DNA from: Escherichia coli
Lineage (GTDB): Bacteria > Pseudomonadota > Gammaproteobacteria > Enterobacterales > Enterobacteriaceae
Reading direction: 5' to 3' (one strand)
Assembly: GCF_003334255.1 (NCBI RefSeq)
Contig: NZ_QOWU01000095.1
Length of the DNA: 7,641 nucleotides
Shown here: piece by piece, positions 1,071-5,225 of the stretch
Layout: every line of letters starts with the position of its first letter
Position numbering within the stretch: position 1 is the stretch's first letter
The notes under the pieces: generated by a model
What the model was told of the DNA's origin: nothing
Databases searched by the model: none
The model's input: the letters and a program-made list of their open reading frames with translations, nothing else
Program-made: the position numbers and the translations under genes

Positions 1071-1442
1071 TCACTCTTCACTCTTCCGGCACTCGCGACA
1101 GATTATGTTTAGGCGACTGTCGTAGCGACGTATTTCTCCGTCAGGTAACGACCAGATAAGGTCCGGATCAACCACAACCGGTTTCTTCAGCTTTGCCCTC
1201 GATAATTTTTTGCGGGCATTTTGCCAGTCTTTACGAGCCTGTTCAGACGGGAATAACCCGTAGCCAGAATTGTATACATCGCCACTGGCAACCAGCTCTC
1301 TGGCCAGAACGCTCATCAGATATCTTGTTGCCCCAGTTTTAGCTTCCAGTTGTCGTAACGTCTCGCGCCCACTCTGGCGTACGAGTTCAAGAACCTGTCC
1401 TTTAATTTTTTCCCGCTCTTCTTGTGTAAAAACTTTTGCCAC
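1071..1442 (-). CDS. hypothetical protein, possible N-terminal winged-helix DNA-binding fold (123 aa)
   Basis: This is track ORF MAKVFTQEEREKIKGQVLELVRQSGRETLRQLEAKTGATRYLMSVLARELVASGDVY... It has a GTG start at 1442, 3-4 nt after AGGAGGG. It lies directly downstream of the replication gene on the same strand. The wHTH call is pattern-based only. Confidence 0.6.
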   Translation of the reverse strand: MAKVFTQEEREKIKGQVLELVRQSGRETLRQLEAKTGATRYLMSVLARELVASGDVYNSGYGLFPSEQARKDWQNARKKLSRAKLKKPVVVDPDLIWSLPDGEIRRYDSRLNIICRECRKSEE

Positions 1443-1482: not shown

Positions 1483-2553
1483 TTACCCCCTGAAGCCCGG
1501 CGGAATTTCGTTATCCGGTTCAGAAATATGATTCACACAACGCTGGTTGTTCGTGCCGCTTACCGGGAGCAGCCAGGGGTTTTCAAAATTCCGGTCCGGT
1601 CCAAAAAACGTCGTCGCTCGCTGAACAAATTCCGTTCCCGTTTTCCCGGTAGCCGCAAGGTATCTTGCGTAACGCCTCACGCCATCCAGCATGGCCTCTG
1701 GTGGCACCCCCTCGCGTAATCTGGCTTTCCAGGCACTGAAAGCGGATTTCTTCGGGTTTGCCCCGGCACGCAACGGGTATTCCCGCCAGACCTGTTCGAA
1801 CACATCAGGATAATCCACTCGTCCCACAGGCTGCCCGGTGTTTTCCGGGACTACCCGATCGGCTTCCCGCTGAATGGCGGAATCGGCTTCAGGCTGCTGA
1901 AGTTGGTGTGATTGCTCCTGCCTTGCGGTCATCACCTGCTGCACAGCGCCCGAATCGGCTTTCAGCGCATACGCTGAATCGGCTTCCGGTGTCGTGCCTG
2001 CGGGCTGGCCAGGAGTGACGGTCTGAACATCCCCTGCCTGGTTCGTGGCGTTTTTTACGCCATGGACCATAGTGTTTTGATCTTCTTGATCTGTATCTTT
2101 ATCTGTATCTTTATCTGTCGTGACTCGTCGTGACATGTGCGTGACATTTCGTGACTCGCCGTGACAATCGCCATTTTGTTCCCGCTTTCTTTCCCTCTCT
2201 CGCTGCGCCCTCTTGCGCTCTGCCGGAGATTTTGCGGTTTGCGAAATATTGCCGTTGTCCTCTTTCAGCACCTGGCGTTTTTCCCATCCAGTGATTAAAT
2301 CACCATCAAGTACCCGCCCCTGCATCGTCTGCAAAATTGAATCAATTACCTCTTCTGTCACGTCGAGCGCACTTGCCAAATCTTCTGTCGTGACATCAAT
2401 GTGACCTCGCGTGACATTTCGTGACGCGCTCACCAGGAGGTGGATATACACTGCCATCACTGTTGCAATTGGCTGCCCTGACACCCTGGCAATTGTTCGC
2501 CACTTAGGGTCATTTGGCATGTCATGCCATAATCTGAGCCAGGCGTTAGCCAT
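1483..2553 (-). CDS. phage replication initiation / replisome-organiser protein (O-like), 356 aa
   Basis: This is track ORF 1483..2559. I prefer the ATG at 2553 (MANAWLRLWHDMPNDPKWR...), with GAGG 5 nt upstream. It sits immediately after the cro/cII-analogue pair, as O does in lambda. The N-terminal domain is HTH-like, the linker is a low-complexity acidic/Gln stretch, and the C-terminal segment FEQVWREYPLRAGANPKKSAFSAWKARL resembles the conserved C-terminus of phage replication proteins. Iteron arrays lie inside the gene. Confidence 0.75.
   Translation of the reverse strand: MANAWLRLWHDMPNDPKWRTIARVSGQPIATVMAVYIHLLVSASRNVTRGHIDVTTEDLASALDVTEEVIDSILQTMQGRVLDGDLITGWEKRQVLKEDNGNISQTAKSPAERKRAQRERERKREQNGDCHGESRNVTHMSRRVTTDKDTDKDTDQEDQNTMVHGVKNATNQAGDVQTVTPGQPAGTTPEADSAYALKADSGAVQQVMTARQEQSHQLQQPEADSAIQREADRVVPENTGQPVGRVDYPDVFEQVWREYPLRAGANPKKSAFSAWKARLREGVPPEAMLDGVRRYARYLAATGKTGTEFVQRATTFFGPDRNFENPWLLPVSGTNNQRCVNHISEPDNEIPPGFRG
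2079..2124. repeat. AT-rich tandem repeat with two GATC sites (candidate DNA-unwinding element)
   Basis: The sequence is GATCTTCTT-GATCTGTATCTTT-ATCTGTATCTTT-ATCTGTCGTGAC, a 12-bp unit repeated about 3 times. Positions 2079-2118 are about 70% A+T, and GATC occurs at 2079 and 2088. GATCTGTATCTTT resembles the oriC 13-mer GATCTnTTnTTTT. The repeat abuts iteron cluster 1. Confidence 0.55.
2119..2165. repeat. iteron cluster 1: five CGTGAC repeats at 10-11 bp spacing (putative ori)
   Basis: CGTGAC starts at 2119, 2129, 2140, 2150 and 2160, so the spacings are 10, 11, 10 and 10 bp. The cluster lies inside the replication gene, as ori-lambda lies inside O. Confidence 0.65.
2357..2425. repeat. iteron cluster 2: (C/T)GTGAC x4 at 10-11 bp spacing plus one inverted copy
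   Basis: CGTGAC is at 2389, TGTGAC at 2400, and CGTGAC at 2410 and 2420. An inverted GTCACG is at 2357-2362. The 17-mer GCGTGACATTTCGTGAC is identical at 2139-2155 and 2409-2425. Confidence 0.6.
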
Positions 2554-2624: not shown

Positions 2625-3050
2625 TCAATGTACTGCCACAGCATTTCCTGCCGGGCCACCACGGTTCATCTGATTGAAACCGGCGATTGCCACTGCGACA
2701 AAATCATCAGCGTCTCTCACCAGTCGCTCCCGCGTCTCCACCAGCTCCCGAAAATAAGCTGAACTGTGGCTGCGCATTCTGGCCACCAGCAAAGGTGGCA
2801 TTGCCTTTTCGATCGCTGGTAACAACGCCTGAATTTTTTCAACTGCATCAGGGGTGTCTTTCTCTACCCAGCGGAAAATTTTCTGGGTATTGCGAGCCAG
2901 GGCTTCCGGATGGCTGTCGTCATACAGTTCCGGGAACGTCATTCCCAGCTCGAAATACGCTTTGGTAATTTTCGCAGCCGGTACTTTTTCGCCGTCCGGA
3001 TGCGCCCAGGCATTCATCGCCATGCGGATGTGTTCATGCTTGATTTTCAT
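2625..3050 (-). CDS. ydaT: YdaT-family protein (functional CII analogue of CP-933P/Rac-type prophages), 141 aa
   Basis: This is track ORF 2625..3122. The true start is the ATG at 3050 (MKIKHEHIRMAMNAWAHPDGEKVPAAKITKAYFELGMTFPELYDD...), preceded by AAGGGGGG. I recognise the sequence as YdaT family. It lies directly after the Cro-like gene and overlaps it by 17 nt. Confidence 0.85.
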   Translation of the reverse strand: MKIKHEHIRMAMNAWAHPDGEKVPAAKITKAYFELGMTFPELYDDSHPEALARNTQKIFRWVEKDTPDAVEKIQALLPAIEKAMPPLLVARMRSHSSAYFRELVETRERLVRDADDFVAVAIAGFNQMNRGGPAGNAVAVH

Positions 3051-3276
3051 GAATCCCCCCTTGGTTAGAAGGCGGATTATGATCAGAACCGGGAATGACA
3101 ACCGTCGGTATGTGTAACTCATATTTGAGCGCCCCGGCAGTGACTGCCTGAATTAGCAACGCCCATTTCCACGGAACCTCTTCCCCCCACATGCTGACTG
3201 TGGTTTTTGACGTTCCTAGAGCTGCGGCTGTTTTAACAACTCCGCCAAAATAGCCTAATACTTCTGATTTTTTCAT
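3034..3276 (-). CDS. Cro-like HTH regulator of the DicC/YdaS family, 80 aa
   Basis: This is track ORF 3034..3324. I prefer the ATG at 3276 (MKKSEVLGYFGGVVKTAAALGTSKTTVSMWGEEVPWKWALLIQAVTAGALKYE...), with GGAG 6 nt upstream. The YFGG..K.A..LG......S.W pattern matches my recollection of DicC/YdaS. The gene is divergent from the repressor gene. Confidence 0.8.
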   Translation of the reverse strand: MKKSEVLGYFGGVVKTAAALGTSKTTVSMWGEEVPWKWALLIQAVTAGALKYELHIPTVVIPGSDHNPPSNQGGIHENQA

Positions 3277-3367: not shown

Positions 3368-4006
3368 ATGAGCAAGCAAACTATATCTGAACGCATAACC
3401 CAACGTATGCATGCGCTAAACCTGAAAGGCAAAGACCTTGTCAATGGCACTGGCGCATCAAAAGGCTCCGTAAGTCAATGGATGAACGGTGGAGGAGCGC
3501 CGTCCTCGCGTTACATAAGTTCACTGGCAAAAATATTGAAAGTAAACGAAAATTGGCTTCTTAATGGAGGAGAGTTAAATACAGGTGATTCGCTTGATCT
3601 ATCTTTACCGCCGATAAAAACGGTTCCGCTACTATCACTTCAGCAGGCAGCAAGCTGGAGTGATTATATGAAAAATTCCTCAATAACCTCTTGTGTGCAG
3701 CTTGTCGGAGAAATCCCGGTCAATACCTTTGCAGTTGTTCTAGAGAGTGACAGTATGTCAACATCTGGTGGGGGAGTTTCCATCCCAAATGGTTCAACAG
3801 TTTTTGTTGATCCCGATCGAACCGTACAACCAGGAAATATTGTCCTTGCCTTACCCAAAGGGACCACAACACCTGTCATTCGTAAACTGGAGATAGAAGG
3901 GCCGGATATTCTTTTAGTCCCCACGAATCCTCGCTACCCTTCAATTATGCTGGATGATCTATCTTGCATATTGGGCGTATGCTTTAAAATTCAACAAGAT
4001 ATTTAA
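3368..4006 (+). CDS. CI/LexA-like prophage repressor: N-terminal XRE-type HTH + C-terminal S24 peptidase domain, 212 aa
   Basis: This is the track ORF. The HTH is ISERITQRMHALNLKGKDLVNGTGASKGSVSQWMNG. The C-terminal half aligns by eye with lambda CI: FAVVLESDSM is similar to FWLEVEGNSM (Ser129), and PVIRKL is similar to FTFKKL (Lys173). VFVDPD and PTNPRYPSI are similar to LVDPE and PLNPQYPMI. There is no SD before the ATG. Confidence 0.9.
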   Translation: MSKQTISERITQRMHALNLKGKDLVNGTGASKGSVSQWMNGGGAPSSRYISSLAKILKVNENWLLNGGELNTGDSLDLSLPPIKTVPLLSLQQAASWSDYMKNSSITSCVQLVGEIPVNTFAVVLESDSMSTSGGGVSIPNGSTVFVDPDRTVQPGNIVLALPKGTTTPVIRKLEIEGPDILLVPTNPRYPSIMLDDLSCILGVCFKIQQDI

Positions 4007-5172: not shown

Positions 5173-5225
5173 TTTCTGGTGACGTTTGGCGGTATCAGTT
5201 TTACTCCGTGACTGCTCTGCCGCCC
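5173..5225 (+). ncRNA. dicF: DicF small regulatory RNA (53 nt; antisense regulator of ftsZ and other mRNAs)
   Basis: TTTCTGGTGACGTTTGGCGGTATCAGTTTTACTCCGTGACTGCTCTGCCGCCC matches, as far as I can recall, the K-12 DicF sequence base for base. It has the correct context, between ydfC and dicB, and is followed by TTTTT. Confidence 0.9.

Follow-up and report, generated by a model that had tools for sequence, protein, structure and literature searches.

The 7,641-nucleotide stretch of Escherichia coli DNA analysed here (the window) represents the part of a lambdoid prophage that serves immunity and replication. On its minus strand lies the gene for a 356-residue replication initiator, and within this gene are two arrays of short, helically phased repeats (iterons), an A+T-rich tract and a hairpin. 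Judged from the sequence and its conservation, these elements very probably constitute the vegetative, theta-type origin of the prophage, located inside the gene for its own initiator. The initial annotation of this DNA had proposed such an origin, with phased iterons and an A+T-rich tract in the initiator gene as in phage lambda and with short iterons in a bipartite arrangement, and our analysis lends support to that proposal. In transcriptional order, these elements are array A, an inverted iteron, about 190 bp of intervening sequence, array B, a 45-bp A+T-rich tract and the hairpin. The features concerned are the following.

1483-2553, minus strand: initiator gene, 356 aa, identified from the list of open reading frames, phrog_3729, phage annotations and modular homology
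2389-2425, minus strand: iteron array A, four GTCACR cores (coding strand) spaced 10/10/11 bp
2357-2362, plus strand: single inverted core (GTCACG on the plus strand), 28 bp past array A
2179-2235, minus strand: region coding for a basic helix, aa 107-125 (AKSPAERKRAQRERERKRE), assigned from a predicted helix at aa 110-127 and from co-variation
2119-2165, minus strand: iteron array B, five GTCACG cores spaced 10/10/11/10 bp
2074-2118, minus strand: A+T-rich tandem tract, purine-rich on the coding strand (AGATAAAGATACAGATAAAGATACAGATCAAGAAGATCAAAAC), the proposed DNA-unwinding element
2039-2069, unstranded: inverted repeat with core TGGCGT-AAAAA-ACGCCA and extended 13-nt arms, right after the A+T-rich tract
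1486-1557, minus strand: C-terminal tail of the initiator, aa 333-356, ending EIPPGFRG and similar to the final ~24 residues of DnaT from E. coli

Phased iterons and an A+T-rich tract within the coding sequence

Read on the strand as given, YGTGAC starts at 2119, 2129, 2140, 2150 and 2160 (array B) and at 2389, 2400, 2410 and 2420 (array A), and only two further copies occur on that strand of the 7.6-kb window. The arrays lie about 220 bp apart and share an identical 17-mer, GCGTGACATTTCGTGAC, found at 2139-2155 and again 270 bp away at 2409-2425, where none is expected in shuffled sequence. GTGAC forms seven successive links of 10/11 bp, compared with a best value of 3 for any 5-mer (mean 1.15) in 300 dinucleotide-preserving shuffles. 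Throughout the complete 40-kb genome of phage Evi, on both strands, GTCAC clusters or 10/11-bp links are confined to these two arrays. The iteron coordinates and the shared 17-mer, like the tandem 12-mers, the two GATC sites and the partial oriC match of the A+T-rich tract described below, are as first reported. A position matrix of 202 phased copies reduces the iteron to a 6-bp asymmetric core, GTCACG, with weak flanks.

The conservation of this arrangement was assessed by scanning a single genome from each species, the query being aligned N-terminal domains of the initiator, which yielded 80 loci from Gamma-, Beta- and Alphaproteobacteria with a local G+C content of 0.33-0.70. Phage records supplied additional homologues from Pseudomonas, Aeromonas and Ralstonia phages, and a scan of viral contigs with the same domain returned only sequences 99% identical to the window, which are uninformative on divergence. 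Homologues with at least about 57% protein identity carry four GTCAC copies at gene nucleotides (nt) ~117-166, spaced 10/10/11, and three to five at nt ~370-460, with the single exception of L106 (58% identity), which carries GTAACG. In distant homologues from Beta- and Alphaproteobacteria, other iteron classes (GTGACG, GTAACG, GCAACG or CGAACG(C)) occupy both positions in 10-bp phase, and array A is absent in some distant homologues, as it is in L150. The arrays are kept in position and phase in about 60 homologous loci, and they accompany the N-terminal domain from Enterobacteria to Sphingomonads across differing C-terminal domains and neighbouring genes. The inverted core is seen in 21 of the 24 loci of the GTCACG class and, over all classes, in 30 of 44, where a control placed upstream gave 3 of 44; several of the other classes have it directly next to the array.

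The initial annotation had suggested aligning homologous initiator genes to see whether the phasing is conserved beyond what the coding sequence requires. Such an alignment shows phasing and cores kept at synonymous sites over 57-87% protein identity and in hosts of 34-70% G+C. At conserved residues in a codon alignment of 24 homologues (G+C 0.34-0.70), the entropy of the third codon position is 0.08 bit in the cores (9 columns) and 1.28 bit outside them (75 columns; Mann-Whitney p = 2.7e-6). Core codons are essentially invariant (Ala GCG, Ser TCA, Val GTC, Gly GGT, His CAC) from Entomomonas with 34% G+C to Pseudothauera with 70% G+C, while the Arg codon in the spacer between cores occurs in all four CGN forms. 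The codon of Val67, which is set by the inverted core, is GTG in 20 of 20 homologues. Because the cores are invariant at synonymous sites where nearby codons drift, the arrays are, by this measure, under selection as DNA, and the same is indicated for the A+T-rich tract by the comparison given below.

The 10/11-bp period is not a multiple of 3, so that successive copies fall in different reading frames. Array A encodes aa 43-56 (SASRNVTRGHIDVT), comprising the end of helix 3 and a loop, and the cores of array B are read in three frames, as CH, ESR, NVT, MSR and RVT, in a part of the protein that forms a disordered linker. The earlier idea that the iterons force SRNVT/RVTT peptides on the protein is borne out, since all three frames are used and the copy number, 3 to 5 among homologues, shifts by whole DNA units. 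In the Escherichia albertii homologue (L086), a 21-bp in-frame insertion in array A at gene nt ~155-176 adds 2 cores and 7 aa, and that of Pseudomonas sp. JAI111 (L111) has a longer in-frame insertion of whole iteron units in the same array; judging from these loci, the loop encoded by array A is tolerant of origin expansion. The reverse view, in which the pattern is a by-product of peptide repeats or low complexity (SRNVT, RVTT, DKDTDK) and has no function as DNA, would accord with the strong conservation of these motifs in the protein alignment. However, copies in the three frames give different peptides, four-fold degenerate core sites are invariant over hosts of 34-70% G+C with flanking codons free, and the codons of the A+T-rich tract are kept in genomes of 60-70% G+C and under other frames. 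Contradicted by the synonymous-site test, a by-product of this kind has a close to negligible probability.

The tract adjoining array B is 70% A+T and contains tandem 12-mer units (TCTTGATCTGT / TCTTTATCTGT) at 2084, 2096 and 2108, with GATC at 2079 and 2088; the G+C content of 0.30 at 2080-2119 is the lowest 40-bp value in the gene. Such a tract is found right after array B in 60 of the 60 loci scored, with a mean G+C of 0.33 compared with 0.56 for the locus (Wilcoxon p = 1.6e-11). Its coding strand is 75% purine, with the consensus CAGATAAAGATA(A/C)AGA, an (AGATAA)n repeat that is kept in genomes of 60-70% G+C with GAT/AAA-type codons. It is also kept under other frames, giving the peptides LDKIREE or DRLDKRR instead of DKDKDK, and this persistence where frame and peptide differ argues that the A+T-rich tract, too, is a DNA element. 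One unit, GATCTGTATCTTT, matches the oriC 13-mer GATCTnTTnTTTT at 9 of the 11 specified positions. A specific kinship with the oriC 13-mer is not upheld by the homologues: GATC is restricted to enteric members, non-enteric homologues lack it and keep AGATAA/AGATAC repeats, and the conserved unit is the purine-rich hexamer repeat (AGATAA)n. The resemblance of the unit to the oriC 13-mer is best seen as generic.

Folded as single-stranded DNA (ssDNA), the hairpin of the window, which lies outside the interval first annotated, has z = -4.2. Its counterpart in Shigella phage 75/02 Stx (L168, gene nt ~515-545) reads TGGCGA-AAAAA-TCGCCA, a compensatory T/A to A/T change; this phage shares the C-terminal module of the initiator alone, its N-terminal domain being unrelated, and a (GAACAG)n purine tract precedes its hairpin. 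Perfect-stem hairpins are enriched past the tract across the family (mean best stem 5.8 vs 4.8 bp, p = 1e-7, with the best stem chosen per locus and only random windows as control), many of them having the form ..CC-T(A/G)AC-GG.., their stems being unrelated and reaching 11 bp. In L001, L091, L095, L097, L100, L126 and L151, C- and G-runs (CCCCCCTTACCCCCC...GGGGG) with G+C-rich hairpins lie ~40-60 nt past array B, and the peptides from these segments are PPYPP- or PLTP-like.

All the elements are transcribed, and the compensatory change fits RNA and ssDNA equally, as would be expected if they acted in the mRNA through stability, translational pausing or attenuation. The phasing by one helical turn, the inverted copy and the co-variation with the basic helix described in the next section point instead to recognition of duplex DNA, and the origin region matches no family in Rfam; an action at the mRNA level is thus extremely unlikely.

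The initiator and its proposed reading of the iterons

The start of the initiator was placed at ATG 2553, giving 356 aa in agreement with the annotation in phages Evi and Tritos. Escherichia phage vB_EcoS-640R1 has a copy identical to the window gene (100%), those of Evi and Tritos match the window gene to 98.5%, and the records of these three phages contain no origin annotation. The protein matches phrog_3729, 'replication initiation protein', with 852 bits. In phage records it is named 'DNA replication protein O', 'Primosomal protein I' or 'replisome organiser', NCBI labels near-identical proteins 'phage replisome organizer', and often the gene is labelled just 'hypothetical protein'. No Pfam domain in the 356-aa protein scores above threshold, and Phage_rep_O (PF04492) gives no match even at E = 10. 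Phage_rep_org_N (PF09681) reaches 12.8 bits, below its cut-off of 23.3, in an alignment of aa 7-124 that spans the whole model, and TIGR01714 reaches 15.4 bits, below its cut-off of 49.8. The whole-model alignment suggests a possible distant kinship with the replisome-organizer family.

A structure predicted with AlphaFold2 (AF2) from a 52-sequence alignment (mean predicted local distance difference test score 71) contains helices at aa 4-14, 16-25, 29-45, 56-63 and 67-77, a beta wing at aa 78-88, the basic helix at aa 110-127 and disorder from aa 129. We propose, from sequence and model, an N-terminal origin-binding module of approximately aa 1-128, followed by a disordered linker, encoded by the stretch with array B and the A+T-rich tract, and then by a C-terminal module. 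In this model, the loop of array A and the linker of array B and the tract can be viewed as sites where constraints from the DNA are tolerable. Comparison of the AF2 N-terminal domain with PDB by Foldseek gave only weak winged-helix matches (MarR, CAP, ArsR), all with E > 0.2, and sequence and profile searches of PDB found the DnaT tail alone.

The iteron class co-varies with the basic helix, whose motif is R-x1-x-x-x4-R, with K114 and Q117 as x1 and x4 in the window protein. The pair is K..Q in 26 of the 28 GTCAC loci as scored; the two that the pattern match scored as E..Q, when read directly (RKREQRQRE), show the K..Q form displaced by one register. The corresponding pairs are T..Y/W in GTGAC loci (6/6), V..Y/F/H in GTAAC loci (4/4), S..H/R in GCAAC loci (3/3) and A/S/K..W in GAACG loci (13/14, the remaining one being A..H). 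The mutual information between helix and iteron amounts to 1.85 bit over 55 loci, shared ancestry being ignored, against a maximum of 0.93 in 5000 permutations. Apparent natural swaps also occur: L150 and L151 have a K..Q helix and GTCACG on the backbone of another class, and L144 has T..Y and GTGACG on a GTCACG- or GAACGC-type backbone. This co-variation indicates that the initiator, and specifically its basic helix at aa 107-125, is most likely the reader of the cores.

The loop of array A (SRNVTRGH) was also considered as the recognition element, in which case the iteron would be 'self-encoding'. L150 is without array A and the loop motif, yet has GTCACG in array B and the K..Q helix, so the loop was rejected as the main determinant of specificity. 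Another possibility is that a factor other than this initiator, from the host or from the phage, binds the repeats. Consistent with this, the winged-helix part contains no class-specific residues outside the iteron-encoded segments, with identity between classes of up to 80%. The iteron hexamer nevertheless tracks two residues of the gene's own basic helix through five classes and 55 loci, apparent recombinants included, and the arrays travel with the N-terminal domain irrespective of host, C-terminal domain and neighbouring genes, which makes a separate binding factor very unlikely.

Proposed helicase recruitment and course of initiation

The C-terminal module is exchangeable, and the version in the window is common to the O proteins of SfV, cdtI and Shiga toxin (Stx) phages. 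Its tail is matched locally by NF002770 (DnaT) at model positions 156-179 of 179, over aa 335-358 in GTG numbering, with 19.3 bits against a cut-off of 201, and also matches the PDB DnaT chains 6aep, 2ru8 and 9zbt. PF17948, the ssDNA-binding domain of DnaT, has no match in the window protein and is present in some close homologues, and the DnaT-like tail recurs in homologues with otherwise different C-terminal domains. DnaT assembles into filaments on ssDNA and is presumed to bring in DnaB-DnaC (PMC13377028); given this role, the likeness makes the tail a candidate motif for recruiting or docking the host replisome. Unlike the window protein, DnaT is without an origin-binding N-terminal domain. 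The annotation of the complete Evi genome lists no gene for a helicase, loader or primase, and no gene for a P or DnaC-like partner is present in the window, Evi or Tritos. In relatives with other C-terminal domains, the next gene is annotated as DnaC-like (phage 75/02), dnaB (Hennie) or 'replicative helicase' (Aeromonas phage pAEv1818).

The linker of the C-terminal half contains a further repeat, with three exact copies of GAATCGGCTT at 1880-1889, 1952-1961 and 1976-1985, encoding repeated EADSA; three matches were reached in 6 of 200 shuffles. The spacings of 72 and 24 bp are multiples of 3 and, in contrast to the iterons, these copies seem to be a repeat of the peptide or a duplication.

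In the mechanism that we propose, arrays B and A would be occupied by initiator monomers in head-to-tail order, all on the same face of the DNA and with one monomer for each turn of the helix. Each monomer would insert its basic helix (aa 107-125) into the major groove at one core, and K114 and Q117 would determine the specificity. The oligomer on array B would strain and open the adjoining (AGATAA)n tract, and the C-terminal module with its DnaT-like tail would recruit host DnaB-DnaC. The hairpin may mark or assist the site of loading or priming, or may serve as a boundary. Array A with the inverted copy would act as an auxiliary initiator site, be it an enhancer, an autoregulator or a copy control element. 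Array A is probably auxiliary and not part of the core origin, because it is absent in some distant homologues and is not helically phased with array B; the final copies of A and B are 249, 258, 267 or 270 bp apart among homologues, all multiples of 3 and not of 10.5. For the same reasons, the looping or handcuffing between arrays suggested in the initial annotation remains speculation.

The arrays might also bind the initiator for regulation only, through autorepression, a transcriptional roadblock in the gene or handcuffing copy control, with the true origin elsewhere. Iteron arrays with a purely regulatory role exist in plasmids, P1 incA being an example. Array A and the inverted copy lie about 220 bp from the A+T-rich tract, in the coding region of a folded domain, and array A is dispensable in some homologues. 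Array B, however, abuts the purine tract in all 60 loci and is usually followed by a hairpin, which is the signature of an origin and not of an operator, and the 40-kb Evi genome holds no other iteron cluster. A purely regulatory role is plausible for array A alone; for the arrays as a whole we consider it unlikely.

Several points weigh against the interpretation as an origin read by its own initiator. The Pfam and TIGRFAM replisome-organizer models score below threshold and the fold matches are weak. The co-variation figure ignores phylogeny, and only a handful of apparent recombinants break the tree. Arrays A and B are out of helical phase with each other, and array A, lying where it encodes part of a folded domain, could serve regulation. 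In its loop and its position, the window hairpin departs from the ..CC-TAAC-GG.. type common in the family, their equivalence being assumed. The similarity to DnaT spans just ~24 residues. In addition, none of the 26 phage records with the N-terminal domain is that of a familiar model phage.

Beyond the in-gene origin itself, we tentatively suggest a more specific scheme, which we rate as somewhat less than an even prospect. Here, a two-residue code at positions 114 and 117, on a single basic helix of a non-AAA+ initiator, would set origin specificity, with K..Q reading GTCACG, T..Y GTGACG, V..Y GTAACG, S..H GCAACG and A..W CGAACG, and the (AGATAA)n tract, the hairpin and the DnaT-like tail would let a single protein load the host helicase with no phage loader.

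Relation to known origins, distribution and significance

Experimentally proven origins inside initiator genes include ori-lambda in O, a design established for Stx phages as well (PMC7466680), and oriL of SPP1 in gene 38, in which AB-box iterons adjoin an A+T-rich unwinding element (PMC5737612). A further paper on the replication region of Stx phages makes no mention of iterons or origins (PMC8044961). The lambdoid origins (lambda, P27 and 933W and, by sequence, SfV and cdtI) are likewise placed in the initiator gene, with iterons and then an A+T-rich tract. In lambda, an inverted repeat follows the A+T-rich tract. The lambdoid rule, under which the N-terminal domain and the iterons are swapped as a unit and the C-terminal domain serves recruitment, applies here as well. 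Iteron gain lengthens the protein in Stx phages, where two extra iterons give 13 extra aa in O (PMC7466680), as it does in the E. albertii homologue described above. In contrast to the window protein, the lambda O family has the Phage_rep_O domain, and compared with lambda the window has two separate arrays plus an inverted copy, and the conserved (AGATAA)n tract. The iterons of SfV and cdtI are dyad-symmetric, ~19 bp long and placed at ~21-24 bp, whereas those of the window are 6-bp asymmetric direct repeats, one per helical turn. SfV (L169, gene nt 260-440) and cdtI (L170, nt 260-500) combine a lambda-O-like N-terminal domain with in-gene dyad iterons, TAGTGCA..TTCACTA; cdtI has nine GTGCA cores compared with six in SfV, plus an extra DSLGGSANNSLSGAANSPGSAG peptide segment.

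SPP1, grouped here with related phages of Firmicutes, resembles the window in having its origin in a replisome-organizer gene, and its initiator G38P is not an AAA+ protein (PMC5737612); the corresponding resemblance here is the weak Phage_rep_org_N match. It differs in that the second site of G38P, oriR, is distant in the genome, whereas both arrays of the window are within the gene, and in that SPP1 encodes its own helicase and loader; the hosts of the window family are Proteobacteria. No protein homology to the window initiator was found in IncQ (RSF1010) or iteron plasmids. The oriV of IncQ plasmids shares with the window the succession of direct iterons, an A+T-rich region and hairpins, which in these plasmids are single-strand initiation signals (ssi), and iteron-initiator specificity classes exist there too. 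Plasmid iterons, by contrast, are 17-22 bp long, the origin is intergenic, and the ssi hairpins are read by a plasmid primase. Searches of the literature for GTCACG/CGTGAC iterons, and for replisome-organizer origins in proteobacterial phages, gave no description of this element. The design is known, and what is newly described is a version of it with asymmetric 6-bp cores spaced by one helical turn, two separate arrays accompanied by an inverted copy, a conserved hexamer-repeat tract, an apparent two-residue code and a module contained in a single gene.

The other features of the immunity and replication region are as follows.

1071-1442, minus strand: DUF977/Ren-like gene
2625-3053, minus strand: YdaT/cII-like gene
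3034-3276, minus strand: P22-Cro-like gene
3368-4006, plus strand: cI-like repressor gene
5174-5225, plus strand: DicF small RNA (Rfam RF00039, 76.7 bits against a gathering score of 48)

The DicF small RNA marks the window as a lambdoid prophage of the Qin/DicF type, and in phage Tritos dicB and ydfD adjoin DicF.

Among 5426 complete E. coli genomes, 2036 carry the 401-bp origin region, in at most 4 copies each, and the element also occurs in prophages of Gamma-, Beta- and Alphaproteobacteria. The Pseudomonas aeruginosa sequences CP137943.1 and CP124671.1 (50.9 kb), filed as plasmids in PLSDB, carry a homologue of the initiator with 70% identity and may be episomal or excised phage genomes that replicate from this type of origin. 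Multiple copies per genome raise the matter of cross-talk between origins and initiators of co-resident prophages, and knowledge of the origin and its specificity classes would explain whether such prophages are compatible in replication. Automatic annotation of origins in this initiator family would become possible. The element would further provide a clean case of a protein sequence dictated by overlapping DNA signals, and a testable model for the recruitment of a host helicase by a single phage protein. Loci of this type would represent natural, orthogonal and compact replicons of ~400 bp plus one gene, the specificity of which may be reprogrammable; if the two-residue code is true, a few substitutions, accompanied by corresponding changes in the iterons within the gene, would give rise to new origin-initiator pairs that are orthogonal to one another.

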